32,000 nt of DNA. Source: Gemmata obscuriglobus. GTDB taxonomy: Bacteria; Planctomycetota; Planctomycetia; Gemmatales; Gemmataceae. The position numbers were made by a program, and so were the translations under genes. Location: contig NZ_CP042911.1 of the NCBI RefSeq assembly GCF_008065095.1, forward strand, positions 2,910,001 through 2,942,000, given 5' to 3'. A model generated the notes under the pieces. That model made no database searches. It saw only the letters and a list, made by a program, of their open reading frames with translations, and was not told the origin of the DNA. Below, piece by piece: positions 1 to 32,000 of the stretch. The number at the start of each line of letters is the position of its first letter. Within the stretch, counting starts at the first letter, position 1.

Positions 1-356
1 GGGGACCGGCCCCTTCGTTTGTTGCGTTGCGATTGGCATCGGGTGCTTCCCTGGTGGTGCTTCCGGTCGTTCGTTTCGTCTCGTTTCGCTGCTTGCGGGC
101 CGCGAAACTTCCACCGGCTTGTGCCCGAGCGGGTACCGCTCGGTTGGATCGTTTCGGCCGCAAGTGACTTCCTGAAAACCTGTTGCGACGCATCTCTTGG
201 CCGCCGTGGGAACCATCCTACTCAACCTTTGACGGCTCGGAGCGCGGGTTTTAGGTGCGATTCGGTGGTAGCGACGCACCAGCGTACTGCCAGCTCATGA
301 CCATTCGAACACCAGCGAACGTCCAGTCGGTGACCCATCGGCAGCGATCGCGTCGG

Positions 357-545
357 CACTGTAACCCCCGAGTGGCGTCGCGACGCGAGTGTAACGGGGG
401 TTACAGTGGTGTCGCGACGCGAGTGTAACGGGGGTTACAGTGGTGTCGCGTCGCGAGTGTAACGGAGGTTACAGTGGCGTCGCGACGCGAGTGTAACGGG
501 GGGTACAGTGATGTCGCGAGTGTAACCCCCGTTACAGTGCCGAGT
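357..545. repeat. Tandem array of about 5.5 head-to-tail units of ~34 bp (TGTAACGGGGGTTACAGTGGTGTCGCGACGCGAG)
   Basis: Read directly: units begin near 389, 423, 457, 491 and 520, with a partial inverted-type unit at 357. Each unit contains TGTAAC-N4-GTTACA and the perfect palindrome GTCGCGAC. There are no unique spacers between units. Confidence 0.9.
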
Positions 546-768
546 GAACTTGGGGACAGCCCCAGGGCCGGCGTCGGCAAAACGTGTGGGTGAAGTCACA
601 ACCCCGTACCCGTGGTACGCTGCATAACCACACACAGCGCTGTTAGCAGCGGTCACGTTGTGGCTCCGTTCCGGTGCTTCGGACGGCTATTCCCGGTTGC
701 GTGTCTGCGCAACGCCCCCCTCTACGGCAGATGGCACCGGCCTTCGGTCCGGTGGGTGCGTCTGCTTC

Positions 769-818
769 TCATACATGAACACGCCTGCGGTGTCGCTTGT
801 GTTGACGGGCCGCGACCG
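769..818 (-). repeat. Inverted-orientation copy of a ~50-60 bp repeat family (TCATACATGAAC..GCGGTGTCGCTT..TTGACG.GCCGCGACC)
   Basis: The reverse complement aligns with the copies at 1781-1841 and 3016-3075 (shared blocks catacatgaac, gcggtgtcgctt, ttgacg-gccgcgacc). Confidence 0.7.
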
Positions 819-966
819 TAGAGGTCGCCAAGGCACGCGCCCGAACGGGAAATGACAGTGGGGGACACGGCTCGTTAAGAAATCAGACGTGTTTTCTGTG
901 TATATGTTTTATAGTTTGCGCCGGTTGAGCTAGAAGGGTGCTTGGCCTGTGAAGGTGCCCCGGCCC

Positions 967-1427
967 CGAAGACGACCTACCCCCGTCCCCATCCCTAAAG
1001 GTAGGGGGTGGCGCCGGGAGGGGTGGTCCCGATGCGAGCGGAAAGGCAACCTACCCCCCGGCCCCCTCCCTAAAGGGAGGGGGTGGCGCCGGGAGGGGTG
1101 GTCCCGGCGCGATATGCGCACGCGGGGCGAAGACCCACCCCCTGCCCCTCCCTGAAGGGAGGGGAGCAAGGCACGGGCGCATCGATTCCGCCTCGGGTGC
1201 GCGGTGGTTTTTGCTCCCCCTCCCTTCCCGACGGCCCACGGAAGCTCTGCTGACCGGGCCGGCGAGCACGGCGAGGGGGCGGGGGGTAGGTTGCCTTTGC
1301 TCTCCTCCCTTCAGGGAGGGGCCGGGGGTGGGTCTTCGCTCCGCGTGCGCATATCGCGCCGGGACCACCCCTCCCGGCGCCACCCCTTCCCTTCAGGGAG
1401 GGGGCAGGGGGGTAGGTTGCCTTTCGC
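967..1427. repeat. Nested palindromic repeat block built from CCCTCCCT-NAA-GGGAGGG hairpin units; ~135-bp copy at 1039-1172 and inverted copy at 1281-1427, plus a partial direct copy at 967-1031
   Basis: The reverse complement of 1291-1427 matches 1039-1172 at roughly 90% when aligned by eye. Several short perfect hairpins (ccctccctaaagggaggg, cccctccctgaagggagggg) are present. Confidence 0.85.
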
Positions 1428-1430
1428 CCC

Positions 1431-1740
1431 CTGGTCACCCCCGGTCACCCTCTGGTCACCCCGGGTGACCGCCGTAACTCCTTGCGGCGCAAGGCTTGGT
1501 CACCCGTGGTCACCCCGGTCACCCCCTCTCTACCCCCCGTAACACTCCGCCGCCCCCCCCTGGCGCGTGTGTAACGAGCGCCGGACGACGTTACACCGGA
1601 GAACGTTACACCCGCGAGAAGATGTTCGACAAATAAAAAAGAAAAGGGGTGACCAGGGTGACCAGGGGTGACCGCGCCTTGTGCCGCAAGGACTTACGGC
1701 GGTCACCCCCCCGGCCCACCGGGTGACCGGGGGTGACCAC
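1431..1740. repeat. Long imperfect inverted repeat (arms ~1433-1526 and ~1645-1738) made of 13 GGTCACC/GGTGACC heptamers at 9-11 bp spacing, with a central ~120-bp loop holding GTGTAACG motifs and an A-rich tract (1630-1645)
   Basis: Heptamer starts counted at 1433, 1443, 1454, 1464, 1498, 1508, 1517, 1648, 1657, 1667, 1701, 1722 and 1732. The arms are roughly 85% complementary by eye, including ggtgaccgccgtaactccttgcggcgcaagg versus ccttgtgccgcaaggacttacggcggtcacc. Confidence 0.85.
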
Positions 1741-1780
1741 CGGAGCGCGGGGCCGGGCGCGCTGCCCCGGTGCCACGTCT

Positions 1781-1841
1781 CCCGCTCCCGGGCAGACGCG
1801 GCTCGTCAAGACAGCGGCACCGCGGGTGGGTTCGTGTATTA
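1781..1841 (+). repeat. Forward copy of the TCATACATGAAC-family repeat; its last bases supply the stop codon of the adjacent minus-strand gene
   Basis: gacgcggctcgtcaagacagcggcaccgcgggtgggttcgtgtatta aligns with 3029-3075 with 4 mismatches. Confidence 0.75.
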
Positions 1842-2807
1842 CGGCGTCTTCAACCAGGCGGCCGTGAACGTGTCGGGCGGGAAGGTGGGGTTCAACTCGA
1901 TGTCGCGGAAGTAGTAGGTACCGATCGTCACTTTCGTGCCGCCCGGTGCGTCGCGGAGCGTCTCGGTCGCGACCTGGAGCCACCGCTCGCGGTCGATGAA
2001 GATGGTCACTTCCGTGAACCCCTCGGCCGCGATCACCTTCGGGTCTTTGCTAGCGGCCCCGCCCAACTGAAATGCGTCCACCTCGACCCCCTCGCACATG
2101 CGCCGGATCACATGGCACTCGCGGTTCCCGGCCTTCTCGACCGTTTTGGTTCCCAGGTACTCGTACTTGAACTTGCCGGTCTCCTGACGGTCCTTCCACG
2201 CCTCGTGGGTGCGGAGCATGGTGCGGTACAGCCCGGCGTCGCGGACGCAGTAGCGCGACTGGCCCGTTGCGAGCGGGCTGTCCGGCGGGATCGGGGTGCT
2301 CAGCTTGCTGACGAAGGCTTTCGGGCGCCAGGTTACGGCTTTGTTCCCTAAGCCGCCCTCCGCTTCAGGACGTTCGCTGAACAGCGTGCCGGTGATCTCG
2401 GACCCCAGGAACGACCGCGCTCCGGAGCGCCACTTCGCGGCGACCTCGATTGCGGTTTTCTTCGTGTCGGGGTCGGGCACGTCGCCGCGCACGCACAACT
2501 CGAGCACCTCGACCGGCGGGGACTGCGGGGGCTCCGGTTTCCCCTGTACCCGTTCCTGCTTCTCAAGAACGCAGCGCATCCCGTGGACCTCGCGCTGGTA
2601 CCGCGTGAGGCACACCGACAGTGCCTTGACCGGGTCCGTTCGGGCCAACGTGTCGAACTCGTCTTGCGTCGGGAGCTTGTCGCCGTGGTCCTCGTGCGCC
2701 AGCGGGGGCGGGGGCGGCGCCGCGCGGAACAACTGGTCGTACGCGACGTACCCGCCGCACGCGATCAGCGCGAGCACCGCGACGAGAAGAGCGAACACCC
2801 GGTTCAT
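1839..2807 (-). CDS. DUF1571-like lipoprotein (planctomycete-type, function unknown)
   Basis: 322-aa ORF with an N-terminal signal peptide and lipobox (LALIAC). The overall sequence resembles DUF1571-family proteins as I recall them. The composition is protein-like, unlike the overlapping frames. Confidence 0.6.
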   Translation of the reverse strand: MNRVFALLVAVLALIACGGYVAYDQLFRAAPPPPPLAHEDHGDKLPTQDEFDTLARTDPVKALSVCLTRYQREVHGMRCVLEKQERVQGKPEPPQSPPVEVLELCVRGDVPDPDTKKTAIEVAAKWRSGARSFLGSEITGTLFSERPEAEGGLGNKAVTWRPKAFVSKLSTPIPPDSPLATGQSRYCVRDAGLYRTMLRTHEAWKDRQETGKFKYEYLGTKTVEKAGNRECHVIRRMCEGVEVDAFQLGGAASKDPKVIAAEGFTEVTIFIDRERWLQVATETLRDAPGGTKVTIGTYYFRDIELNPTFPPDTFTAAWLKTP

Positions 2808-2966
2808 CCTGAATCCTCCTGCCCAGGGGAGAGCGTTCAGGCAGTGTACGCCGAGCCGACGGGCCGCACAACGCGCGGACGAGTGCGCGGCGTGTGGGGC
2901 ACCGGAACGGGTGGAAGAGTGCTGTACTGTGTAGCCGGTCTCTGTGAGACACGTACCCGGTAATAT

Positions 2967-3075
2967 TGTCGCTTTCCTGACGAGCCGCGACCGCCAGGGA
3001 GCGGGGTACGTGGCACCGCTCCCTGGCGGTCGCGGCTCGTCAAGAAAGCGACACCGCGGGTGGGTTCATGTATGA
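2967..3075. repeat. Hairpin element of the TCATACATGAAC family: 38-bp arms (2967-3004 / 3016-3053, 1 mismatch), 11-nt loop, right arm extending to 3075
   Basis: Arms checked base by base. A degenerate left extension is visible back to about 2945. Confidence 0.85.
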
Positions 3076-3205
3076 GTGTGGTCCGCTCACTCCGTGAGCG
3101 GTCGCTCCGGGGATCGGATGCGCGTTGCGCACAGCGACGGAGCGGATGACACCAGGAGCGGATCCGATACGCGGAGCGACCGCTCACGGAGTGAGCGGAC
3201 CACAC
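3076..3205. repeat. 130-bp palindromic element with perfect 34-bp terminal inverted repeats (GTGTGGTCCGCTCACTCCGTGAGCGGTCGCTCCG)
   Basis: Arms at 3076-3109 and 3172-3205 are exact reverse complements. Both strands give ORFs starting MWSAHSVSGRS. Each arm also holds an internal hairpin (ccgctcac tcc gtgagcgg). Confidence 0.95.
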
Positions 3206-3402
3206 TCCAGGCCGGAACCGCGGTACGGCCCGAACTCGAAACGACTGGACTCGGTATGAGTCACCGGAACGGGTGCGGGCGGAAGGTGAAACGAGATGGT
3301 TTCCCGTCTTCGGCCTTCTGCCGGGCGAAACTCCAGTTGAAATCGCCGTCAGTGGCGACTATCCGCGCGGAGGGCAAAGACCGTACACGCACGGGGTGAG
3401 GA

Positions 3403-4713
3403 ATGCGCAGCCGTTGGCCGGTCGCGGTCGGGGTGGTGCTGGTTTCGGTCGGCGTCGGGCGTGCGCAGCCGCTTCCGCCGCCCGCGCTCCCGCCGCTCGC
3501 GCCCCTGCCGGTCGCGCCCCCGCCCCCGCCGGTCGCATCGGTCGCGCCGACGCCACCCACGACGCCCCCACCGCCGGACAACGCGACCCTGCCACCACTG
3601 CTGCCGGTTCCGCCCGTTCCCCCTCTCGCCGAGGTGCCCAAGCCGGGCGGCACCCCGCCACCCGTCGAGTACGACCCGAACTACCTGTACCTGCCGGAAC
3701 GCGAGCCCGAGCGGCCGCGGTTTCGTGCGGAAGAGGAGCCGGGCGGGAAGTGGTGGGGCGGTGTGTCGCTGGGGTTGGCGTGGGCGGATCGCGACACGCT
3801 CCCGGCGACCGTCCGACTCCCCGTCGTGTCCGGGCTCGGCGGGGCCGGGCCGGGGCTGATGCTGCCGGTCGCGGGGCGCTCAACGAACCGGTTCGACGCC
3901 GCGCTGGGTCTGGAGGGCGGGCGCCGCTTCGGCGCGGGTAACACGTCCGGTGTGGACCTGGGGTTCTTCTTCCGCTCGTCGGAAAACTCGTTCGACGGGT
4001 ACGCGCCGGGGGTGGTCGTGCTGTTCCCGCAGGGGACGGCTCGCGCGCCGCAACTGCTCCCGCTGTTCGAGCCGCTCGCGTCGATGTTCACGGGCGTGTT
4101 CCCCGCCCGCCTCACGAACTCGTTCGTCACCCCCGAAGTGAACTACCGGCACCGGCTCTACGGCGACCGCCACGCCTGGCTCGACGCGCTCGCGGGCTAC
4201 CGCTTTGCGTACTTGAAAGACGAACTGTTCATCGGCGAATCGGACCGCGTGAACGACAACGATGACCGGGGCCGGAACTGGCGCGGGCCGGGGCCGTACC
4301 GGGTCTCGGTCGCGAACCCGTTCCACGGCGGGCAGATCGGGCTGGCCGGGCACTACCGCGCCGAGAGCGGGTGGTACGTGGCCGGTTCGGCCAAGGTCGC
4401 ATTCGGGGCGGTCACGCCGGAGGTCCGCGCGAGCGGGCTGTTCACCGGCGCCGAGGGGTTGCTCGGGGGGAACTACCGCCGTTTCGCCGCCCTGGACACG
4501 CGCGACGAGAGCCGGTTCGCGGTGATGCCGGTAGTGAACGTGTCCGCGGGCTGGCAGTTCACCCCGCGGGCGCGGGCGTACGTCGGCTACTCGTTCCAGT
4601 ACCTGAGCCGCGCCGGGCGCTTGAGTAATGTGCTCGACCCCGCCGCAAGCGGGCTCAAACTGACGGACTTCTCCGTGCAGTCGGTGAACCTCGGATTAGA
4701 AATCGGGTACTGA
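3403..4713 (+). CDS. Outer-membrane beta-barrel protein, probably BBP7 (DUF1551) family
   Basis: 436-aa ORF with a signal peptide (VGVGRAQP) and a long Pro-rich linker. This is followed by a Gly/aromatic-rich alternating segment with NPFHGGQIGLAG, and the protein ends in an aromatic residue (..LEIGY). Confidence 0.65.
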   Translation: MRSRWPVAVGVVLVSVGVGRAQPLPPPALPPLAPLPVAPPPPPVASVAPTPPTTPPPPDNATLPPLLPVPPVPPLAEVPKPGGTPPPVEYDPNYLYLPEREPERPRFRAEEEPGGKWWGGVSLGLAWADRDTLPATVRLPVVSGLGGAGPGLMLPVAGRSTNRFDAALGLEGGRRFGAGNTSGVDLGFFFRSSENSFDGYAPGVVVLFPQGTARAPQLLPLFEPLASMFTGVFPARLTNSFVTPEVNYRHRLYGDRHAWLDALAGYRFAYLKDELFIGESDRVNDNDDRGRNWRGPGPYRVSVANPFHGGQIGLAGHYRAESGWYVAGSAKVAFGAVTPEVRASGLFTGAEGLLGGNYRRFAALDTRDESRFAVMPVVNVSAGWQFTPRARAYVGYSFQYLSRAGRLSNVLDPAASGLKLTDFSVQSVNLGLEIGY

Positions 4714-4730
4714 TGAGATAAGGGCTCAAG

Positions 4731-5017
4731 ATTAGCCGCAAAAAAGCACAAAGGGCACAAAAGAAGATAGAAGAAAGAGTTAGCCACAAAAAAGCACAAA
4801 GGGCACAAAAGAAGAGAGAAGACGGAGTTAGCCACAAAAAAGCACAAAGGTCACAAAAGAAAGCCGAGGACAAGACAATAAAGAAGTGTTTTAAATTCAC
4901 TACTCTGTCTCGGTCTTCGGTCTTCTTTTGTGCCCTTTGTGCTTTTTTGTGGCTAATCTCTCTTCTGCTTTTCTCTTCGGTTTTCTTTTGTGCCCTTTGT
5001 GCTTTTTTGTGGCCAAT
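4731..5017. repeat. Five copies of an AT-rich ~36-bp repeat (TTAGCCACAAAAAAGCACAAAGGGCACAAAAGAAG): three direct (4731, 4779, 4827; 48-bp period) and two inverted (4922, 4982; 60-bp period)
   Basis: Read directly. The array fills the convergent intergenic space between the barrel gene (stop 4713) and rpe (stop 5052). The centre, gtgttttaaattcac, is AT-rich. Confidence 0.9.
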
Positions 5018-5051
5018 CTCTCTTCTGTCTTCTTTCGTGGCTCACTCTGCT

Positions 5052-5708
5052 TTATTGCTTGGCCAGCGCGATGAGGTCTTTCATTGCGGCGGCCGGGCCT
5101 TGCTTCGCGCCGAACACCGCGCTGCCCGCGACGAACACGTTCGCGCCCGCAGCGGCGCAGTCCGCGATGGTCTTCGCCCCGATGCCGCCGTCCACCTCGA
5201 TCTCGCACGCGGGGTTGTGGGCGCCGATCAGCGCTTTGAGCTTGCGGAGCCGTTCGAGGCTCTCGGGGATGAACGCCTGCCCGCCGAACCCCGGGAACAC
5301 GGTCATGCACAGCGCGAGGTCGATGTCCTTCAGGTACGGTTCGATGCGCTCGACCGGCATGTCCGGGTTGAACGCCAGACCCACCTTCTTGCCCAGCGCC
5401 TTCTTGATGTGCTCCACCATCGGCCGCGGGTCCGGCAGCACCTCCAGGTGAACGATGAGAGTGTCCGCGCCCGCCTTCACGAACCCGTCCAGGAACCGGC
5501 CCGGGTCTTCGACCATCAGGTGGACTTCCAGCGGGATGGTGGTGACCGGCCGGAGCCCCTCGACCACGACCGCGCCCATGCTCAGGTTCGGGACGAAGTG
5601 CCCGTCCATGACATCGACGTGGATGCGGTCGGCGCCGGCTTTCGTGACCTCGCGGACCAACTCGCCGAGCTTCGAGAAGTCGGCCGCCAGGATGGAAGGT
5701 GCGATCAT
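5052..5708 (-). CDS. rpe: Ribulose-phosphate 3-epimerase
   Basis: MIAPSILAADF..HVDVMDGHFVPN..MTV.PGFGGQ.F..VDGG is classic RPE. The start is set at the internal ATG (5708) where homology begins; the 44-aa upstream extension of the ORF looks non-coding. Confidence 0.95.
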   Translation of the reverse strand: MIAPSILAADFSKLGELVREVTKAGADRIHVDVMDGHFVPNLSMGAVVVEGLRPVTTIPLEVHLMVEDPGRFLDGFVKAGADTLIVHLEVLPDPRPMVEHIKKALGKKVGLAFNPDMPVERIEPYLKDIDLALCMTVFPGFGGQAFIPESLERLRKLKALIGAHNPACEIEVDGGIGAKTIADCAAAGANVFVAGSAVFGAKQGPAAAMKDLIALAKQ

Positions 5709-5818
5709 GTGAGTGGCCGGGTTCGTGTTCGGGGCGGCGCGGGGCTGCAAACCGCCCCCCGAAAACAGTACACAATCAGCACGAAACACCAACCACGAAA
5801 CGCCAAACACCCCAAGCG

Positions 5819-6142
5819 ATGCCGAGATTTCCGATCGCACGCGCGCTGATCCGGTTCGCCGGCCGCGCCCGCCGTAACTGGCTCGACCGCCACCAAACCC
5901 CCGCGAACTTCTGGATCCACATGCTGGGGATACCGCTCGCGTTCGCGGGCGTCCCGCTGCTGTTCCTCGCCGAATGGTACTGGGGGGCGGGGGCGATCGT
6001 TCTGGGGTACTTCCTGCAATGGGTGGGGCACCGGATCGAGGGAAATGATGTCGGGGAGTTCATCCCGATCAAGCGACTGCTGGGGCTGCCGGTGGTGGCA
6101 ATCGCCCCGCAGCACCGACCGCTGAACGAGACCAAACCGTGA
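5819..6142 (+). CDS. DUF962 / Mpo1-like small membrane protein
   Basis: 107 aa from the MPRFP start, with two to three TM segments. The H..N..H and WVGH..EGN motifs resemble the DUF962 (YGL010w-like) family. Confidence 0.6.
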   Translation: MPRFPIARALIRFAGRARRNWLDRHQTPANFWIHMLGIPLAFAGVPLLFLAEWYWGAGAIVLGYFLQWVGHRIEGNDVGEFIPIKRLLGLPVVAIAPQHRPLNETKP

Positions 6143-6756
6143 GCGAACGCGAGGCACTTTGGGGCGCGGTCTGCGAGCACCCGGAAGAGGACACGCCGCG
6201 GCTCATGTTCGCGGACTGGCTTCTGGAGCACGGTGACGCAGCGGATCGCACACGGGCGGAGTTCGTTCGCCTCCAGGTCGGTCTGGCGCGGGGGCAATTC
6301 GATGGCCCGAAACGGATTGCTGCCCTTCAACGGGTCGTGGAACTGCTGTCCGCGAACGACGATCGGTGGCGCGCAGAAGTGCCGCAGGTGCCCGGCGCTT
6401 ACGCGACCGGGAACTACGACCGCGGGTTAATTTCGACGCTTCGCGTAATGGATCAGATCGAGTTCCGTGCCGCGGAAGCGTTCCGCGTAGTGCCCGTTTC
6501 GCACCTCGAATTCGCCCGGCCGGTCGATCCGGCCTACCTCGCCGAACTGCCGAATCTTGATCGACTTGGTGAACTCTCGTTTGTTTTAGAACTGGCGTGT
6601 CCCTTCACTCATCTTGCGCGATTTGTCGCGGCTTCCGACTTTCGATCTCTGCGGCGAGTGACGATTGGGGCACCCAGCTTGCCTGCCGACTGGGAGAAGA
6701 CCTTGGAGCAGCGGTTTGGCTCGAAGCTCGCTCGCAAACGTCCGCCGGGCGAGTGA
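6139..6756 (+). CDS. TIGR02996 (repeat-companion) domain protein with an LRR-like C-terminal part
   Basis: The N-terminus EEDTPRLMFADWLLEHGD..RAEFVRLQ is the Gemmata-type TIGR02996 signature. The GTG start overlaps the upstream stop codon (GTGA at 6139-6142). Confidence 0.75.
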   Translation: MSEREALWGAVCEHPEEDTPRLMFADWLLEHGDAADRTRAEFVRLQVGLARGQFDGPKRIAALQRVVELLSANDDRWRAEVPQVPGAYATGNYDRGLISTLRVMDQIEFRAAEAFRVVPVSHLEFARPVDPAYLAELPNLDRLGELSFVLELACPFTHLARFVAASDFRSLRRVTIGAPSLPADWEKTLEQRFGSKLARKRPPGE

Positions 6757-6977
6757 CAGCGGTTTCGATCGGCTTCAAGATCATTCGGCGTAAGCTGTTG
6801 CAGTGTAGAGGGAAATGCTCGATTCCCCGGGCAACGTTCGCCACACCCCAGGGGCAGAGGAAACAGAGAAGTGCTGCGCGTTCTGCGCTTCGTTACGGTT
6901 TACGAATTCCGCAATTTGCATTCTGATAGTTCCGACCTGCGCGTTCGGGTGTAGAATCTTTACGATGGCAATGCGGG

Positions 6978-7736
6978 ATGTGTTGGAATCGTCCGGAGAA
7001 CGGGATGCCGGTAACGCAGGCCACGCCGGAGGAGATCGCCGCGGCGAACGAGCGGCTCCTGAACGCGACCCCACAAGACGTGCTCCGCTGGGCGAGTGAC
7101 CGCTTCTCGCCGCGCCTGCTGATGGCGACCGCGTTCGGTGCGGAAGGGTGCTGCCTGATCCACATGCTGGCGGAGATCCAGCCGAACGCGCGGATCATCA
7201 ACCTGGAAACCGGGTACCAGTTCCCCGAGACGCTGGCGCTGCGCGAGCGGATCAAGGCCCGTTACGGCACCGAGGTCGAGTACATCTACCCGGAACAGAC
7301 CGTCGCCGATTACGAGGCCGAGCGCGGCGGGCCGCTGCACCAGCTCCGCCCGGACCAGTGCTGCCACGACCGCAAGATCCTTCCCCTCCGGCGCGCGGTC
7401 GAGCGCATCGACCCGCTCGCCTGGATTTCGGCGATCCGCAAGGACCAGACGGCCGATCGTGGGAAGGCGGCGGTGGTGCAGTGGGACGCGAAGTTCTCGC
7501 TGGTGAAACTCAACCCGCTGCTGAACTGGACCAAGAAGGACGTGTGGGGCTTCATCCACAAGCACGACGTGCCGTACAACCCGCTCCACGACCGCGACTA
7601 CCCGAGCATCGGGTGCTGGCCCTGCACCCGCCCGGTGGCGCCGGGCGAGGACGAGCGCGCCGGCCGCTGGGCCGGTAAAGCGAAGAAGGAGTGCGGGCTG
7701 CACGTGATCGAGGTCAAGGACGGGGAAGGGATTTAG
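6978..7736 (+). CDS. cysH: Assimilatory adenylylsulfate/PAPS reductase (CysH; Fe-S, APS-reductase type)
   Basis: PAPS_reduct-fold sequence with a CC..RK..PL pair and SIGCWPCT (cluster cysteines), plus the C-terminal KECGLH motif. An alternative start at 7005 (MPVTQ) is preceded by GGAGAA. Confidence 0.9.
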   Translation: MCWNRPENGMPVTQATPEEIAAANERLLNATPQDVLRWASDRFSPRLLMATAFGAEGCCLIHMLAEIQPNARIINLETGYQFPETLALRERIKARYGTEVEYIYPEQTVADYEAERGGPLHQLRPDQCCHDRKILPLRRAVERIDPLAWISAIRKDQTADRGKAAVVQWDAKFSLVKLNPLLNWTKKDVWGFIHKHDVPYNPLHDRDYPSIGCWPCTRPVAPGEDERAGRWAGKAKKECGLHVIEVKDGEGI

Positions 7737-7826
7737 TTTCGGGTGAGGATGAGGGGCAAGAACGTGAGGGCGCCGGCCGCTCCCGTTCGGCCCCTCGCGC
7801 TTCACTTCTCACTCCTTAGTGACGCT

Positions 7827-8276
7827 ATGCTTTTTTCCGCTCGTGCCGAATACGCGTGTCTGGCGATGCTGGAACTGGCCGCCCATTACGGCGACCCGAA
7901 GCCGGTGCGCCTGACGGACATCGCGAACAAGCACGGGATCTCGTCCCCGCGCTTTCTGGTGCAGATCCTGATCCAGTTGAACAAGGACGGGCTGGTGACC
8001 AGCACCCGCGGGGCGGCCGGCGGGTACCACATCGCGCGGGCGCCGTCGGCGATCACGCTGGCCGACGTGATCGCGGCGGTGGAAGGGACGGAGCAGGCCG
8101 GAACGCGGACGAAAGCTCGCAAGCCCACGTCACCGCTGGCCGCGGCGCTCGACGACGTGTGGGACCGCGTCCGCACCGCGCACGAAGACTTCCTTCTGAA
8201 GCAGGCCGCGATCCTCAAATCCACGACGCTCGCTCAGCTCGTCGATTCCGGCGAGCCGCTCCAGTACGTGATCTGA
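7827..8276 (+). CDS. Rrf2-family transcriptional regulator
   Basis: MLFSARAEYACLAMLELA..L.DIA....IS.RFL.QIL..L.K.GLV.S.RG..GGY is the typical Rrf2 winged-helix N-terminus. The start is set at the internal ATG at 7827. Confidence 0.85.
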   Translation: MLFSARAEYACLAMLELAAHYGDPKPVRLTDIANKHGISSPRFLVQILIQLNKDGLVTSTRGAAGGYHIARAPSAITLADVIAAVEGTEQAGTRTKARKPTSPLAAALDDVWDRVRTAHEDFLLKQAAILKSTTLAQLVDSGEPLQYVI

Positions 8277-8303
8277 TTGTGCCGGCAAGAATCGCCTTCG
8301 GTC

Positions 8304-9452
8304 TCAGCCCGCGCAGACCGGCGTCGGTTCGGACGGCGCCGGCGCTTGCGGTAACTCGCGCGGCCCCTTCGTGTTGTCCAGCACGTACTTCTGGAACTGG
8401 TACACGCGCTCTTCCCGCGTCCCGATCACCCCCGGGAACGGGCTCGCCTCCATCCCGCGCTGGATGCCCAGGTAAATCGACCCGTCCTCGGCGAAGACCT
8501 TCTTCCCGATGGCCGTCGCGATCGACTTCAGCGTGCGGTAAAGGACCCACGCCAGCGGGTTGGTGCGCGTCCCGCGGAGCGTGAAGAAGATGCACCGGTA
8601 GCGACAGGTGGCCGGGCCGGTGGGGAACACGCACTGCATCATCCGGAACGAGTCCAGCGAGCTGCCGGTCGCGTGCGGGTGCAGCACCTGGTGCCAGTAC
8701 TCGTTCGTCACCGGCTGGCCCATGCGGCGGACCATCCACGCCTGCGCGCGGCCGGCGAAGTCGCTGGGCGGGAGCGTCTTGAACGACGAGAACCGCTCCG
8801 TGAGTTCGTGCCACACGTTCTCTTCGGCCGGGAACTCTTTGAACGTGTGCGGGTGAACCTCGGGGATGTGGTACGACTCCAGCGAGTTCTCCAGCACCAC
8901 CTTCCAGTTGCACGCGAACTCTTTTTCCCACGTCGCCGCGTGCCGGTACGCGCCGCCGTAGTGCCGCCACACGTCCCACACGGGCGCGAGCCACTCGCGC
9001 AGGCCCGGGCCGCTCGCGCTGAAGTTCACGAACACCAGATCGCCGCAGGTGTCCACGCGGAACTTCTTCAGGCACGAGTTCTCGCGGTCCCACGGGCGGA
9101 ACACCTTCGCGTCCGGGATCTTGCCGGTCCCGCCGTCCTTGTTGAACTCCCACCCGTGGTACTGGCAGCGGAGCTTCTCGGCGTGCCCGCGGGGCTTCTC
9201 GGTGAGTTTGCTGTGCCGGTGCGGGCAGACGTTCAGAAAGGCCCGCAGCTCGCCGTCGAAGTTGCGGATGATGAACGGGGTTTCGAGCAGGTCGAGCGTG
9301 ATGAAGTCGCCGGGCCGGGCGAGGTCGCTCGTGGTCGCGACCGGGTGCCACGCCGGCTGGAACAGGTGCCGCAGTTCCGCCCGGTACTGCTCTTCGGACG
9401 TGTAATGGTGCGGCCGCAAGAGGTGCTTGAGGTGGTGCTGGTTGGTGAACAT
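8304..9452 (-). CDS. Rieske [2Fe-2S] non-heme-iron oxygenase, alpha-subunit type
   Basis: Rieske motif CPHRHSKL..(17)..CQYHGWEF and the mononuclear-iron motif ESYHIPEVHPHT are present. The start is set at MFTNQHH (9452). Confidence 0.85.
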   Translation of the reverse strand: MFTNQHHLKHLLRPHHYTSEEQYRAELRHLFQPAWHPVATTSDLARPGDFITLDLLETPFIIRNFDGELRAFLNVCPHRHSKLTEKPRGHAEKLRCQYHGWEFNKDGGTGKIPDAKVFRPWDRENSCLKKFRVDTCGDLVFVNFSASGPGLREWLAPVWDVWRHYGGAYRHAATWEKEFACNWKVVLENSLESYHIPEVHPHTFKEFPAEENVWHELTERFSSFKTLPPSDFAGRAQAWMVRRMGQPVTNEYWHQVLHPHATGSSLDSFRMMQCVFPTGPATCRYRCIFFTLRGTRTNPLAWVLYRTLKSIATAIGKKVFAEDGSIYLGIQRGMEASPFPGVIGTREERVYQFQKYVLDNTKGPRELPQAPAPSEPTPVCAG

Positions 9453-9602
9453 CGCGGCGTCTGGGGGATTTAGGCAAACAGGGGCGATAGTTCCTCTTGT
9501 TGGGTTTACGAGAACGTCTCGTGGGATGCAAACCGCCCAAAAGATACACCCGCCGACATCAGCAGGCGGGTGGCGCAACACGACGGCGGGAAACTTACCG
9601 GC

Positions 9603-10463
9603 TCACTTCCCGGACACTTTGGCCATGAGGCGGTCGATTTGGTAGCTCTTGCCGGGGCCGTCGAGCCACTTCACGAACGCCTCTTTCGTCTTCGCGATGA
9701 AGTCCTCGTTGGGCTTCACCATTGGGAACGTCCAGCCGTCCTTGTCGTTCAGCCCGAGCATGCTGAACGACTGGTACGCGGTGAGCCCGCTCGCCTCGGC
9801 CTTCCAGTCGGCTTCGGCGAGCGCCTTGAGCAGGAGGGCGCTCTCGTCCGCGGGCACCTTGGCGGTCGTGGCTTCGCCGCCGCCCTCGGGGTACGCACGG
9901 TACTTGGCGATGAGGATGTTGGCGGCCAGGGTGCGGTCGGCCGCCTGATCGGCTTTCAGGGCTTTCATCGGATCGGCCAGCGTCGCGGCGGCCTTTTTCG
10001 CTTCCGCAACCCGGTCTTTGTAGTCCGCGGTGTCGGCCAGTATGGGGCTCAGCATCGGGGTGATCGTGTAGAAGTCCCCGGTGGGGTGCTTGACGAGGAA
10101 GAACAGCCCTTCCGCGTCCACGGTCGGGCGGAACGGGGACAGACCGCCGCGCCGCGGCGGGGCCGGGGCGTCGATGTTGGTCCCGGTCGGCTCGAACCCG
10201 ACCTTGATGTGCGTGACCTCGCCCGCCCCGATGAGGGGCGTTTCGACTTTCACCACCGCGACCCGGTACGACACCTTCTCCTTCGCGCCCGGCTCGGCCG
10301 GCACGACGGCCGGTTCCTTCTCGATGGCCGTCACCTTGCCGACCACGACCGCGTTGGCACGGGCCAGCTTTTCCAGCGGCGTGAACATGCGGACGCGCTT
10401 GGCTTCTGCCGGGGTCACGAGCAGCAGCGCGGCGAGGGCCGCGACGAACAGCGTGCGGATCAT
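9603..10463 (-). CDS. Secreted protein of unrecognised family, paralog 1 of 3
   Basis: 286 aa with a signal peptide (..TPAEA). It shares the blocks VVVGKVTAIEKEP, VAVVKVE, H.KVGF, FFLVKH, ADPMKALKAD and AFVKWLDGPGK with the next two genes. Confidence 0.8.
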   Translation of the reverse strand: MIRTLFVAALAALLLVTPAEAKRVRMFTPLEKLARANAVVVGKVTAIEKEPAVVPAEPGAKEKVSYRVAVVKVETPLIGAGEVTHIKVGFEPTGTNIDAPAPPRRGGLSPFRPTVDAEGLFFLVKHPTGDFYTITPMLSPILADTADYKDRVAEAKKAAATLADPMKALKADQAADRTLAANILIAKYRAYPEGGGEATTAKVPADESALLLKALAEADWKAEASGLTAYQSFSMLGLNDKDGWTFPMVKPNEDFIAKTKEAFVKWLDGPGKSYQIDRLMAKVSGK

Positions 10464-10494
10464 GTAAATTCCCCGGGTGGGGCTCCTGTGCTTG

Positions 10495-11349
10495 TTACTT
10501 TTTCGGAACGAGCTTCTTGATCCGGTAGTCTTTGCCTGGGCCGGCGAGCCACTTCACGAACGCCTGGCGACTGGTAGCGAAGAAATCCGCGCCCGGGGCT
10601 ACGGCGGGCGCGGTCCAGCCGTCCTTCTCGGTCAGCCCGAGCATCGAGAACGCGCCGTACCCGTTAAGACTCTGTGACGCGGGCGTCGGCGCCCACACCC
10701 CTTCGCCGAGCGCCCGCAGAATGGGGCCGCTTTCCTCGGCCGACAGGGGCACCTGTTCCGTCTCGCCGCGTGTCCCTTCGCGCGGTGTGCGAAGCGTGTA
10801 AACGATTGTGACCGCCGCCTCGTATCGGTCCTGCTCCTTCTCGGCCTTCAGTGCCCGCGCCGGGTCGGCGACGGCCGCGAGCGCTTTTTTGACACCCGCG
10901 AGTTGGTCCTTGAAGCCGTCGTTCTTCGTCTCAACGGGCGGCGTCATGTACGGGACGGCGTAGAACGCGCCGTCGGCGTGCTTGACCAGAAAGAAGAGCC
11001 ACTCCTGACCTTCTTTCAGCTCCGGGTTGTTGAGCCCGCGCCCCGCCTGGACGCCGGCGCCCTGCTCGGCGGCCGGGCGAACGAACCCGACCTTCAGGTG
11101 CGTGAGATTCTCGGCCCCCAAGAGGTTACTTTCGACTTTCACCACCGCGATGGTGTGCGCGACCTTTTGGGCGCCGGGGTAAAGCGGGGCGCTGACGGGT
11201 TCTTTTTCGATCGCGGTGACCTTGCCCACGACCACCACCGGCGCGCGCAGGGCACGCTCGACGGGTGTGGCGTACGGCGCGATCCGGTCGGCGCGTGCGG
11301 TCGTAACGAGCGAGCCGACGGCCAGCGCCGCGCAGAGTAAGCGGAACAT
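10495..11349 (-). CDS. Secreted protein of unrecognised family, paralog 2 of 3
   Basis: 284 aa with a signal peptide (..TTARA). It has the same conserved blocks as the neighbouring paralogs and lies 31 bp from paralog 1. Confidence 0.8.
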   Translation of the reverse strand: MFRLLCAALAVGSLVTTARADRIAPYATPVERALRAPVVVVGKVTAIEKEPVSAPLYPGAQKVAHTIAVVKVESNLLGAENLTHLKVGFVRPAAEQGAGVQAGRGLNNPELKEGQEWLFFLVKHADGAFYAVPYMTPPVETKNDGFKDQLAGVKKALAAVADPARALKAEKEQDRYEAAVTIVYTLRTPREGTRGETEQVPLSAEESGPILRALGEGVWAPTPASQSLNGYGAFSMLGLTEKDGWTAPAVAPGADFFATSRQAFVKWLAGPGKDYRIKKLVPKK

Positions 11350-11415
11350 GAGCCACCAGTAGGGGGAGTGGTGAGCGGTGCAGGTCTAACATCCGCCGGG
11401 CCGCCGGGGACGCAC

Positions 11416-12342
11416 TTACTTGTTGGTCGCCTTTGGGACCAGCTTCTTGATCCGGTAGTCTTTGCCGGGGCCGTCGAGCCACTTCACGAACGCCTCTTTG
11501 GTGAGCGCGTTGAAGTCGACCGGCGGTTGGCCCGGTTGCGGGCGCGGGAACGCCGGCTGCGCCCACCCGTCCTGCTCGCTCAGCCCGAGCTGGTAGAAGG
11601 CGTTGATCGGGTTCGCGAAGACGTCCGCGCCCGGGGCGGGGCGCACCTTGTTGCTCCAGTCCGCTTCGACGAGGGCTTTGAGGATCAGCTTGCTCTCGTC
11701 GGCGGCGATCGCCGCCTGTTCGACCTCGCCGCCGAAATCCGGGTACGACCGGTACTTGGTCACCATCGTCGTGGCGGCGAGCAGCCGGGTTTCGGCCTTA
11801 TCGCTCTTGAGGGCCTTCATCGGGTCGGCCAGCACCTCGGTCACCTTCTTGACCGCTTCGAGTTCCTTCTTCCCGGCGTCGGTCTTGATGTCAACCGGCA
11901 GGCTCATGTTCGGGATGATGTAGAAGTCGGCGGACGGGTGCTTGGTCAGGAAGAAGAGCATCTCCTGACCCTCTTTCAGCTCCGGTGCCTGAAACCCGGG
12001 CCGGATGGGGCGAATCGGCCGGACGCCCGGGCCGCCGGGCGGGGCCGGAACGGGTGCCGGTTGCGGGGGCTGCGTACCGATTTTGATGTGCGTGAGGTTG
12101 GCGGCGCCGGCGAGCGTCGATTCGATCTTCACGACCGCGACCCGGTACGTGACCTTCTCCTTCGCGCCCGGGAACGGCAAAACCGCTTCAACGGTGTCTT
12201 TTTCGATCGCCGTGACCTTTCCGACCACGACCGCCTCGGCCGTGATGGCGCGCTGGGGGGCCGGGCGGATGGCGATCATGAGGGCGTCGGTCGAGCCGAC
12301 GCCGAGCACCAGAGCGGCGGTTGTGAGCAGGAACTTCCGCAT
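11416..12342 (-). CDS. Secreted protein of unrecognised family, paralog 3 of 3
   Basis: 308 aa counted from MRKFLLTTAALVLG (ATG at 12342); the longer ORF extending to 12714 runs through a repeat element. It has the same conserved blocks and lies 66 bp from paralog 2. Confidence 0.8.
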   Translation of the reverse strand: MRKFLLTTAALVLGVGSTDALMIAIRPAPQRAITAEAVVVGKVTAIEKDTVEAVLPFPGAKEKVTYRVAVVKIESTLAGAANLTHIKIGTQPPQPAPVPAPPGGPGVRPIRPIRPGFQAPELKEGQEMLFFLTKHPSADFYIIPNMSLPVDIKTDAGKKELEAVKKVTEVLADPMKALKSDKAETRLLAATTMVTKYRSYPDFGGEVEQAAIAADESKLILKALVEADWSNKVRPAPGADVFANPINAFYQLGLSEQDGWAQPAFPRPQPGQPPVDFNALTKEAFVKWLDGPGKDYRIKKLVPKATNK

Positions 12343-12600
12343 TTCGTTGAGCCTGAGAAAAGTGAGAGCGACATCTGGGCTTCTCGATTCCGGACGATAC
12401 GGCGGCCGAAAAAGTTGGGGCGCAGGCGAAAATCGGCCGTATTGTCGCGGACCTGGGCGGAGAAGGGTTAAGAAAAAACGTGTCAGGCCATTGAACGGGC
12501 CGCGCGACGTGTTTACGCTGACAGCAAGATCGCACCCCGCGTGGGTCGGTCTCCCGGCCGCCCGGTGGTGTCCCCGCACCGCCGGGCGGTGTTCTTTAGT

Positions 12601-12708
12601 AATGCGGAATGTGGAATTCGGAATGCGGAATTGAAGACAAAGTGCGGAGCGTATTTTGGCTCTTCTCTGTCTCTTTAATTCCGAATTCCGAACTCCGCAC
12701 TCCGCATT
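12601..12708. repeat. Palindromic element built from heptad repeats (GCGGAAT GTGGAAT TCGGAAT GCGGAAT ... ATTCCGA ATTCCGA ACTCCGC ACTCCGC)
   Basis: 36-nt arms at 12601-12636 and 12673-12708 are complementary at 31/36 positions, counted base by base. The element lies immediately 3' of the fumC stop codon and is a likely transcript-end hairpin. Confidence 0.85.
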
Positions 12709-12715
12709 TCCCAAC

Positions 12716-14251
12716 TCAGTCGGCCCCGGGCGCGGTCATCTTCTCGGGCCGGACGATCTGGTCGAACTTCTCGGCGGTGAGCGGGCCGCTCCCGTCCTTG
12801 AGCGGCGGCGCGAGTTTGATCGCCTCGGCGCGGAGCGTGGTGCCGTTGTGGTGCGCGGTCTTCGCGATCTTGGCCGCCGCGTCGTACCCGATGTGCCGGT
12901 TTAGTGCGGTCACCAGCATCAGCGACTCGTTCACGATCCGGGCGATGGTCGCGCGGTTGGCGTCGATCCCCTTGCGCACCTTGCCGCCGGACTTGGGGGC
13001 GATCTTCGACTGGTCGACTTCCACCATCCCGCTGTCCTTGCCGACGACGTACTCGAGCGCCTCGTAGTCGGTCTCGGGCATGTCCGCGGCGCAGTGCTCG
13101 CGGAAGCTCCGGCAGGCGTCCGTCAGGAGCCGGACGGAGTGCAGGAAGTTGTGGATCAGCACCGGCTTGAACACGTTCAGCTCGAAGTTCCCCTGCGACG
13201 CCGCCAGGCCCACCGCGAGGTCGTTGGCGATGACCTGCACGCACACCATCGTCATCGCTTCGGACTGGGTCGGGTTCACCTTCCCGGGCATGATCGACGA
13301 GCCGGGCTCGTTCTCGGGGATGGTCAGCTCGCCGAGGCCGCACCGCGGGCCGCTCGCGAGCCAGCGGACGTCGTTGGCGATCTTCATCAGGGCCGTGGCG
13401 AGCGTCTTCAGCGCGCCCGACGCGAAGGCCAGCGGCTCGTGCCCCGCGAGCGCCTGGAACTTGTTCGGCGCGGTGACGAACGGCAGCTTGGTGAGGTCGG
13501 CGATCTGCTTGGCGACGCGGACGGCGAACTCCGGGTGCGCGTTGAGCCCGGTGCCGACGGCGGTGCCGCCGAGCGCGAGTTCGTACAGGAACGGCAGCGC
13601 CTTCTCGACCGCCGCGATGCCGTAATCGAGCTGCGCGACGTACCCGCCGAACTCCTGGCCCAGCGTCAGCGGCACCGCGTCCATGAGGTGGGTGCGGCCG
13701 ATCTTCACGATGTCGGCGAACTCGGCGGCCTTCGCGGCGAACGTGTCGCGGAGCGCCCGCACGCTCGGCACCAACTCGTGAACGAGCTCCTCCGCGGCGG
13801 CGATGTGCATGGCCGTCGGGAAGGTGTCGTTGGACGACTGCGACATGTTCACGTCGTCGTTCGGGTGGACCGGCTTCTTGCTGCCGAGCACCCCGCCGGC
13901 CATCTGGATGGCGCGGTTCGAGATCACCTCGTTGACGTTCATGTTGGTCTGCGTGCCGCTGCCGGTCTGCCACACGCGGAGCGGGAAGTGGTCGTCGAGG
14001 TACCCGGCGATCACCTCGTCCGCGGCGTCGGAGACCAGCTTGCACCGGTCGGCGGGGAGCAGCCCGAGGGCGCTGTTGGTGAGCGCGGCGGCCTTCTTGA
14101 GCGTGCCGAACGCGCGGATCACGGCGCGGGGCATGGTGTCGGCGCCGATCGCGAAGTGCGTGAGCGAGCGGGCGGTCTGCGCGCCGTAGAGGCGGTCGGC
14201 GGGGACGCGGATGTGCCCCATGCTGTCGGTTTCGAGGCGGTACTCTCGCAT
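12716..14251 (-). CDS. fumC: Class II fumarate hydratase (with a C-terminal-domain insertion)
   Basis: [52 protein letters not shown] are present. The start is set at the ATG at 14251. The product is 511 aa, against about 465 for typical FumC. Confidence 0.95.
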
Positions 14252-18276: not shown

Positions 18277-18786
18277 GCGGTGTCCGCGGGAGATATTCCG
18301 GTGGCGCCGGGTTTGCGTGACGGCGGCCCGTATTCTATCGTCCTTTAGCAACGGCCGAGGGCGATTTTGGTTCTCGGCCGGGGGCGTGTGCCGGCGCGTT
18401 CTGTCGCGTCACACCTTTCATCCTCGAAAGGGCTAACCCGCTGCGAAGCGGGGGCGCAAAGCCACGGGCCTGCGGTCTCCCCACCACACCGACCGCAGGT
18501 CGCCTGGTTGCCGAAGGGCATGGCGGTGAAAACCTGTCCATCCCTGGGGGCGTGGGGTCACACCCGCTCCCCTCCGCGCGCCGGAACACGGGCTCACGCC
18601 CGGTGCCGCCAGCGCACGCCCCGCTACGTTCAACATCTCTGAGCATCGGCCGCGCTCGGCGCGCCGACCGGCGCGCGCCGCGTGACGCCGAATCCCATCT
18701 GCGTCGTGTGACGCAAACTCAACAAAGACCTTCTGTCGTTTCACGTGCGGTCTGGGTTGTCAAGATCCCCTGTCGTATACACGAAC

Positions 18787-19037: not shown

Positions 19038-19532
19038 ATGATTGGTTCCATCGGTTCGACCGCACCGAGTCTCTCGGTCGCGTCTGTTCTGCAGGCCGGG
19101 ATAACCTCGGCCGTGAGTGGCACGGGTGCCCTTACCGGTGCCGGTGACACCGCCGACATCTCGGGGCCGGGGAAACTGTTCGCGGCGCTCAAGGAATTGG
19201 CTGCGGAAGATCCGGAGAAGTTCAAAGCGGTGGCCGCGGACATCGCCACCAAACTCAAGGAAGCCGCAGAAAAGGCGAGTGACGCGACCGGTTCGGTCGC
19301 CGGTCCGAGTTCCCTGCTGTCCGACCTCGCCGCCAAGTTCGAGACGGCCGCGGAAACGGGGGACGTGTCCGTATTGGAGCCCCCCTCGCAGGGGCCGGGC
19401 GGGGTGGGCGGGTACAACCGCGCCGGCCGGCCGAACGGCCCCCCGCCGCCCCCGCCGGCGGACTCGGGTGTTGATCTGAAGGCGCTGTTCGACTCGATCA
19501 CCAAAGAGGTGACCGACGCGCTGGCCGCGTGA
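19038..19532 (+). CDS. Hypothetical Ala/Ser/Gly-rich protein with a poly-Pro tract
   Basis: 164-aa ORF with a helical KELAAEDPEKFKAVAADIATKLKEAAEKA segment and no signal peptide. It is the only sensible frame in an otherwise ORF-poor region. Confidence 0.55.
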   Translation: MIGSIGSTAPSLSVASVLQAGITSAVSGTGALTGAGDTADISGPGKLFAALKELAAEDPEKFKAVAADIATKLKEAAEKASDATGSVAGPSSLLSDLAAKFETAAETGDVSVLEPPSQGPGGVGGYNRAGRPNGPPPPPPADSGVDLKALFDSITKEVTDALAA

Positions 19533-31781: not shown

Positions 31782-32000
31782 GGCCAAGCTAGTAAGGGCG
31801 TGTGGGGGATGTCTTGGCACCAGGAGGCGAAAGGGCGTGGAAGACTGCGAAAAGTCCGGGGGAGCTGTCAAACGAGCTTTGATCCCGGAATACCCGAGCG
31901 AACGCAGGGAACTGAAACATCTCAGTACCTGTAGGAGGAGAAAGAAACCTCGATTCCGTCAGTAGCGGCGAGCGAACGCGGAGCAGCCCAAACCGGGGGT
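31782..32000 (+). rRNA. rrl: 23S rRNA, 5' end (partial, continues beyond the window)
   Basis: GGCCAAGCTAGTAAGGGCGTGTGGGGGATG..GGGAACTGAAACATCTCAGTACC..AGTAGCGGCGAGCGAACG matches universally conserved 23S domain I blocks. No 16S 3' end or spacer tRNAs lie upstream. Confidence 0.9.

Follow-up and report, generated by a model that had tools for sequence, protein, structure and literature searches.

A tandem trio of putatively exported paralogues in Gemmata obscuriglobus: a Gemmataceae family with a predicted OB-fold domain, and the near-identity of its 3' ends

Within a stretch of 32,000 nucleotides of the Gemmata obscuriglobus genome (assembly GCF_008065095.1, contig NZ_CP042911.1, positions 2,910,001 to 2,942,000 of the forward strand; hereafter the window), three tandem genes, here called C, B, and A, encode signal-peptide-bearing proteins without a family name, and their 3' ends are nearly identical at the nucleotide level. 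Taken together, our results make it fairly likely that the three are ancient, diverged paralogues, each with a predicted OB-fold domain and a helical domain, and that the 3' identity is mainly a matter of a conserved peptide motif and its codons, with occasional exchange of sequence added. On this account the three genes would be orthogroups C, B, and A left from an ancestral C-B-D-A array, the invariant AFVKWLDGPGK motif and the preferred codons would keep the 3' ends alike, and short-tract exchange and unequal crossing-over would act on the 3' block on top of this.

The gene trio and its orthogroups

A first-pass annotation of the window had described three co-directional genes, and the open reading frames (ORFs) bear this out: all three have the lengths it gave, lie on the minus strand (Table 1), and are separated by gaps of 66 bp (C-B) and 31 bp (B-A). 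The protein motifs that it quoted were all found in the translations, and only its estimate of 35-45% overall identity was too low, with A, B, and C being 46-52% identical in pairwise protein comparisons. The mature proteins contain no cysteine and have isoelectric points of 9.0-9.25. Compared with the proteins of Gemmata algarum JC673/JC717, a sister species whose genomes are the nearest to that of the window, A is 95% and C 96% identical, with a synonymous divergence (dS) of ~0.12-0.14 for both genes and a ratio of nonsynonymous to synonymous divergence (dN/dS) of 0.19 for A and 0.09 for C. Because these ratios, a comparison that the first-pass annotation had proposed, are so low, they indicate that the genes are real and that purifying selection acts on the trio. 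Against G. massiliana, the orthologues of the trio are only 57-65% identical, while fumC, the gene upstream, is 91% identical, and the family therefore evolves fast, which would fit the habit of envelope and exported proteins.

Four orthogroups, A, B, C, and D, were resolved by neighbour joining of 36 family members, taken from 12 loci of the Gemmata clade. All four are carried by the locus L004, in the order C-B-D-A; the order C-B-A is found in the window, in G. massiliana, and in Gemmata sp. IIL30, and other genomes have B-D-A or other subsets. Wherever an examined genome has an A-group member, this gene closes the array, and gene C of the window groups with the C orthologues of G. massiliana and others. 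From these relationships, C-B-D-A is taken as the ancestral order, and the trio of the window represents three of four ancient orthogroups and not the product of recent duplication. Since the four orthogroups recur across Gemmata-clade loci, the duplications predate the split of Gemmata and Frigoriglobus, after which the arrays have lost members differentially. Searches with a hidden Markov model (HMM) of the family put the number of tandem copies at 1-4 for most loci and at 11 for contig L060, so that the answer to the question raised in the first-pass annotation, whether the trio is always tandem, is that arrays range from 1 to 11 copies. The array of L060 (positions 1-8723) is the largest seen, and its eleven tandem copies, one of them cut by the contig end, are 32-77% identical to one another.

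Origin of the near-identical 3' ends

The near-identity reported by the first-pass annotation held under proper alignment. The exact 38-mer shared by A and C, which had been placed at 9650-9687 and 11461-11498, is real but lies at the coordinates given in Table 1, and the match of about 52 of 56 positions between 10509-10564 and 11441-11496 is likewise real, at 53 of 56 positions and with the C side at 11439-11494. The matching stretches encode (K)EAFVKWLDGPGK and GKDYRIKKLVP, where conservation across the family is highest, in genes whose GC content at third codon positions (GC3) is 0.83-0.91. Over the whole genes, identical amino acids are encoded by the same codon in 57-62% of cases, where codon usage alone predicts 54-56%. 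When codon pairs were shuffled among columns of the same amino acid, the longest exact match between A and C (38 nt) was significant (permutation p=0.006), whereas those between B and C (26 nt; p=0.11) and between A and B (p=0.27; not at the 3' end) were not. The 3' identity goes beyond chance only marginally.

The same codons are used throughout the family. Across the 36 genes from 12 loci, the string GCG TTC GTx AAG TGG CTC GAC GGC CCC GGC AAG is nearly invariant. Comparing paralogues of different orthogroups family-wide, we found a same-codon rate in the 3' block of 0.649 within genomes and 0.627 between genomes, and in the rest of the gene of 0.635 within and 0.604 between; there was no family-wide within-genome excess at synonymous sites of the kind expected of concerted evolution. 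That the within- and between-genome rates are near equal, in the block and elsewhere, speaks against concerted evolution as a general process and against any added constraint at the nucleotide level. Because the motif is invariant and GC3 reaches 0.83-0.91, the 3' identity seems mostly ordinary, and we attribute it mainly to the AFVKWLDGPGK motif written in preferred codons rich in G and C at the third position. The first-pass annotation had read the synonymous identity as a sign of gene conversion or of nucleotide-level constraint; motif and codon bias would explain most of it, and what stands of that proposal is lineage-specific recombination.

Recombination at the 3' block

Ongoing gene conversion as the main cause of the near-identity draws on several local observations besides the A-C permutation result. 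In the window, the same-codon count of the 3' block is 38/49, compared with a rate of ~0.56 elsewhere in the genes. Within Gemmata sensu stricto, A and C of one genome differ at 1-2 of 39 nucleotides in the KEAFVKWLDGPGK block, as against 2-5 of 39 for orthologues compared between the window and G. massiliana or IIL30; synonymous variants are thus common to A and C inside Gemmata genomes. The last 33 nt of C in the window differ from B genes at 3-5 sites and from C orthologues at 6-12, whereas over the body of the gene the C orthologues are the nearer (distance 0.24-0.29, compared with 0.36-0.46 for B genes), an incongruence between tail and body of the kind that gene conversion produces, here based on small numbers of sites. 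The B-group signature in this tail is GKDYRIKKLVP. Against gene conversion as the main cause stand the near-equal family-wide rates in the block, which resemble those in the rest of the gene, the recurrence of the same codons in unrelated genomes, the non-significant B-C and A-B permutation tests, and the loci L008 and L004, in which A and C show no particular likeness in the block (10/39 and 8/39 differences, respectively). On balance, we consider gene conversion unlikely as the main cause, while the data modestly suggest occasional short-tract exchange, in which the tail of C looks B-derived.

A further observation on the side of recombination comes from two independent assemblies of G. algarum, JC673 and JC717, both of which have the order fumC-C-A-Rieske and lack gene B. 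In both, the C gene follows the C type as far as ...AAGAAGCTGGTCCC, after which come the last codons of B, the stop codon of B, and the B-A spacer. Since G. massiliana and others have orthologues of B at the same position, B is taken to be ancestral, and the combination of a C body with the tail, stop, and spacer of B therefore points to the loss of B through a crossover of its 3' block with that of C. The junction falls within the equivalent of positions 11439-11494 of the window. Judged by these sequences, the 3' block is demonstrably a substrate of recombination, yet recombination would not be the main cause of the identity.

It is in our view extremely unlikely that the 3' nucleotides themselves have a function as nucleic acid, be it as an RNA structure, as a regulatory site, or as an antisense gene. 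Antisense ORFs starting MPGP(S/A)SHFTNA do overlap the blocks and the identity spans ~55 nt, but long antisense ORFs are expected at 66% GC, and synonymous conservation between genomes is no higher in the block than elsewhere (0.627 and 0.604, as above). RNA folding of the three 3' blocks was unremarkable (z = -0.8, +1.9, and +0.3), and Rfam gave no match in them.

Export signals and predicted structure

As the first-pass annotation had stated, all three proteins begin with a signal-peptide-like N-terminus (for A, MIRTLFVAALAALLLVTPAEA/K). Each has a basic residue, then a hydrophobic stretch, then an AxA-like site, with putative cleavage at AEA/K in A, ARA/D in B, and TDA/L in C and mature N-termini of KRVRMF, DRIAPY, and LMIAIR, respectively, and this pattern of n-region, h-region, and AxA site is kept in a consensus of 50 sequences. 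On reading the sequences of A, B, and C we found no lipobox and no further transmembrane segment. An AxA-type signal peptide with neither of these features is what would be expected of a soluble Sec-exported protein, and the basic, cysteine-free trio is consistent with such export.

To describe the fold, an AlphaFold2 model of A was built on a 50-sequence alignment (pLDDT 86, pTM 0.80). Its DSSP assignment agrees with the beta-rich N-terminal half and helical C-terminal half of the first-pass annotation. In the model the N-terminal domain forms a five-stranded OB-type barrel with a TIMP-like arrangement of helices. When the model was compared with the PDB by Foldseek, the best matches were TIMP-2, the N-domains of TIMP-1 and TIMP-3, and the agrin NtA domain (E 2e-4 to 5e-3; chains 2e2d_C, 1br9, 1jb3, 3ma2_C, and 3cki_B at E 2e-4 to 4e-3), with a Foldseek probability of 1.0, a template-modelling score (TM, normalised to the target) of 0.6-0.68, and 9-15% sequence identity; RPA and ribosomal OB folds ranked next. 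The N-terminal domain is thus modelled as an OB-fold barrel of NTR/TIMP-like topology, a likeness at the level of the fold.

We do not file the family under TIMP/NTR. Mature TIMPs begin with Cys1 (CxC), which chelates the catalytic zinc through its amino and carbonyl groups, and the TIMP N-domain is held in a framework of three disulfides. Family membership was rejected because mature A, B, and C have no cysteine, and hence neither the Cys1/CxC N-terminus of TIMP (PF00965) nor its disulfides, and because the TIMP HMM did not match them at E<=1, with 2 of 50 relatives reaching only E=0.3. The resemblance to the TIMP N-domain and the NTR module, including agrin NtA, therefore lies in export and in a predicted five-stranded OB barrel flanked by helices, whereas the family described here is bacterial, cysteine-free, without a Pfam TIMP or NTR match, and fused to an unrelated helical domain. 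Among bacterial envelope proteins, BOF/YgiW-SipA, CcmE, and CusF/SilF are also OB-fold proteins that carry a signal peptide, with small ligands, peptides, or metals as their binding partners. Those proteins are single-domain, of ~100-160 aa, and show no sequence or profile match to the trio, which differs from them in its additional ~140-aa helical domain and its tandem arrays.

The C-terminal domain, modelled alone (146 residues), reached a pLDDT of 92. A Foldseek search of the PDB with this domain gave nothing at E<1, the best matches being alphaRep/ARM designs (E=1.7, TM<0.3). The domain shares with HEAT/ARM alpha-repeats the helix-hairpin repeats and an L..AL..D....R..AA..L pattern, but it contains a two-stranded sheet and is compact, not solenoidal, and with its best E at 1.7, TM<0.3, and no Pfam HEAT match, membership of HEAT/ARM was rejected. 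The model suggests a compact helical domain that is, in effect, without a known fold neighbour in the PDB. A Foldseek search of viral structures (BFVD) gave nothing at E<=0.001.

Possible function

Our best guess, made with low confidence, is that the trio proteins are periplasmic or exported modules with a binding or scaffold function. In the modelled structure the OB/NTR-like barrel would offer a surface for binding protein or glycan, and the paralogues may form hetero-oligomers, together with a ~1100-aa exported TPR-like protein whose gene follows the array in other genomes (see below). A bolder version of this proposal, in which the array and the TPR-like protein make up a lineage-specific periplasmic or envelope assembly, with the trio proteins as NTR/TIMP-like adaptors or protease regulators and a C-terminal fold new to the PDB, is a long shot.

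We think it very unlikely that these proteins work as bacterial counterparts of TIMPs, inhibiting metalloproteases that are secreted or periplasmic. The idea is prompted by the nearest structural neighbours, by the two relatives that touch the Pfam TIMP model, and by a precedent in Listeria, where PMC8235301 describes a TIMP-like lipoprotein paired with a metzincin. In the trio, however, the zinc-chelating N-terminal cysteine and the disulfide framework are missing, the mature N-terminus is variable and modelled at low confidence, and the conserved neighbours are fumC and the TPR-like protein, with no protease gene among them.

Finally, we give hardly any credence to the idea that the OB domain, by means of its conserved KH...FY and TH residues, serves as a periplasmic chaperone of haem or metal like CcmE or CusF. 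H85 and H126 hardly vary, and the last barrel strand ends with L(V/T)KHxxxxFY, which resembles the haem-binding motif LAKHDENY of CcmE, a lead that we dropped. Homology to CcmE was rejected when the family profile, compared with E. coli CcmE by hhalign, gave a probability of 0.17%, and the His-Tyr spacing is 6 here but 4 in the HxxxY of CcmE. Neither CcmE nor CusF structures were among the 50 Foldseek matches listed, and no cytochrome-maturation or metal-efflux genes lie nearby.

Our preferred account of ancient OB/helical paralogues, with 3' ends kept alike mainly by motif and codons, has to be set against several points that weigh against it or its extensions. The OB/TIMP likeness depends on a predicted structure and on matched chains of 9-15% identity, and the conversion signal on few sites (2-4 differences in 33-39 nt). 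The TPR-like gene does not occur in the 32-kb window, where a Rieske oxygenase follows the trio instead, and co-transcription of the three genes is deduced only from the short gaps and a terminator-like hairpin.

Database searches and distribution of the family

The view of the first-pass annotation, that these are tandem paralogues of exported proteins from no recognised family, agrees with our database searches. Pfam, NCBIfam, PADLOC, and PHROGs gave no match to A, B, or C at E<=1; a Pfam scan of 50 relatives returned only noise (GAPES3, NRBF2_MIT, and TIMP at E=0.3), and sequence-profile searches of the PDB with 3 and with 50 sequences gave nothing meaningful. A word-indexed search found 334 relatives, all unnamed or hypothetical, with Gemmata, Frigoriglobus, and Gemmataceae as the named sources, and an exhaustive HMM search found 1040 clusters at 50% identity (E<=1e-3), for which nearly all of the 150 best-scoring matches listed were 270-310 aa long and aligned end to end. 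In species-representative genomes we counted 64 family loci, all in Gemmataceae (Gemmata, Frigoriglobus, Fimbriiglobus, and Urbifossiella) or in unclassified planctomycete metagenome-assembled genomes (MAGs). Three further family-bearing MAG contigs (L050, L060, and L065) are labelled 'uncultured Alcaligenaceae', probably through mis-binning. By these searches, the family is apparently restricted to Gemmataceae, with members of ~290 aa and two domains, and has no name in Pfam, NCBIfam, PADLOC, PHROGs, or the PDB. One member from Frigoriglobus tundricola (P0015; L067, 8001-8876) bears the UniRef name 'Assimilatory nitrate reductase large subunit', a label that has no domain support and is a probable annotation error.

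In the literature, a search for a secreted OB-fold or TIMP-like family of Gemmata found no description of the family of the trio. A burst of lineage-specific paralogue families in the ancestor of Gemmataceae is described in PMC8567305, citing Mahajan et al. 2020. Like the expanded lineage-specific families of Planctomycetes and Gemmataceae, the family of the trio is restricted to Gemmataceae, multi-copy, and shaped by duplication and divergence; within the part of PMC8567305 that was searched, it is neither named nor discussed.

Genomic neighbourhood

Upstream of the array, fumC (class II fumarase) lies directly adjacent and co-directional in 21 of the 45 loci with at least 2.5 kb of upstream sequence, in several genera and at a distance of 86-700 bp save for two larger gaps (~1.5 and 2.2 kb). 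Many genomes have a second or third family locus elsewhere with unrelated neighbours. Directly 3' of the array, 15 loci carry a gene for a ~1100-1160-aa signal-peptide-bearing protein with TPR-like helical repeats; the versions of it in G. massiliana and in a distant MAG share 45% identity. No characterised relative of this protein was found in Pfam, NCBIfam, or the PDB, where it gave only sub-threshold TPR/YbgF fragments, and it is a second uncharacterised Gemmataceae family and a likely functional partner of the array. The window and G. algarum have a Rieske oxygenase and an Rrf2 regulator in its place. The first-pass annotation had asked whether the trio always stands next to the Rieske gene or fumC; the Rieske linkage is confined to the window and G. 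algarum and was rejected as a feature of the family, and the fumC linkage holds for the loci counted above.

The trio looks like a transcription unit of its own because a hairpin follows A and a 373-bp spacer separates C from fumC, and C-B-A would probably form one unit that ends at this hairpin, apart from fumC and the Rieske gene. The spacer is the probable promoter region of the trio, and a search for a sigma-70 consensus promoter near the trio found no match. The imperfect palindrome within it (Table 1) is built of GGAATKC-like heptamers (4 matches, with 0.05 expected, and nowhere else in the window) and may be a terminator or an element like repetitive extragenic palindromes (REP).

Table 1. 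Features of the trio, its neighbours, and related loci. Positions are those of the window unless a locus is named.
Feature	Position	Strand	Remarks
Gene A	9603-10463	minus	286 aa; orthogroup A; ORF and translation
Gene B	10495-11349	minus	284 aa; orthogroup B; ORF and translation
Gene C	11416-12342	minus	308 aa; orthogroup C; signal peptide, predicted OB-fold domain, helical domain
Signal peptide of A	10401-10463	minus	read from sequence
Signal peptide of B	~11290-11349	minus	equivalent of that of A
Signal peptide of C	~12283-12342	minus	equivalent of that of A
Predicted OB-fold domain of A	10029-10379	minus	residues ~29-145; AlphaFold2 and Foldseek; TIMP/NTR-like topology
C-terminal helical domain of A (predicted)	9606-10028	minus	residues ~146-286; ADPMKALK, DGW, and AFVKWLDGPGK motifs; Lys-rich tail
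Exact 38-nt match of A and C	9649-9686 = 11462-11499	minus	encodes (K)EAFVKWLDGPG(K)
3' block of C and B	11439-11494 and 10509-10564	minus	53/56 positions match
Chimeric C gene, G. algarum JC673/JC717	L002 7051-8003; L066 7052-8000		C body, then B tail, B stop, B-A spacer
Rieske oxygenase	8304-9452		downstream of trio
Terminator-like hairpin and T-run	9547-9570	minus	~33 nt past A stop; pattern match only
fumC-C spacer	12343-12715	minus	373 bp; holds palindrome and GC hairpin
GC hairpin	12558-12589		13 bp; follows palindrome
Palindrome, imperfect	12601-12708		108 nt; directly after fumC stop; 50-nt arms, 80% complementary
fumC (class II fumarase)	12716-14248	minus	Pfam Lyase_1 and FumaraseC_C; upstream neighbour
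TPR-like protein loci	L001 9184-12672; L072 8101-11412		also L003, L005, L007, L010, L014, L015, L017, L021, L024, L033, L035, L040, L042

Three further observations concern single loci or other parts of the window. In F. tundricola, a gene for a 1739-aa bacterial alpha-2-macroglobulin (MG2/A2M/bMG10; L067, 11276-16495, minus strand) lies ~2.4 kb downstream of the array; we record it in view of the protease-inhibitor hypothesis, but its presence near the array, in one genome only, is probably coincidental. On the plus strand of the window, positions 18421-18515 match the c-di-GMP-I riboswitch aptamer over its full length (Rfam RF01051; 55.9 bits, E 1.5e-8), and the next sizeable ORF on the same strand begins ~500 nt downstream (19038-19532, encoding a 164-aa low-complexity protein). 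Positions 31782-32000, also on the plus strand, hold the 5' end of a 23S rRNA gene (172.7 bits) that runs off the window. No 16S rRNA or tRNA gene was found upstream of it within the window, which suggests an unlinked rRNA arrangement.

Conclusions

Both OB-fold proteins that are secreted and tandem paralogue families confined to one lineage are already familiar, and nothing known is overturned here. What this work adds is the definition of the family, with ~1000 sequence clusters and two domains, one of them without a PDB neighbour, which makes it a candidate for a Pfam/DUF entry, together with the description of an ancestral locus that consists of fumC, then the C-B-D-A array, then the large TPR-like protein. 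The 3' ends carry a more general caution, that in genomes of high GC3, nucleotide identity over an invariant peptide motif is by itself no proof of gene conversion, and G. algarum provides an actual example of a copy number altered by crossover at a conserved motif. The genomes of Gemmataceae are very large and full of lineage-specific paralogue families of unassigned role, the envelope and endomembrane biology of these bacteria is unusual, and in this setting the value of the family lies in its being a target for structural and secretome work.

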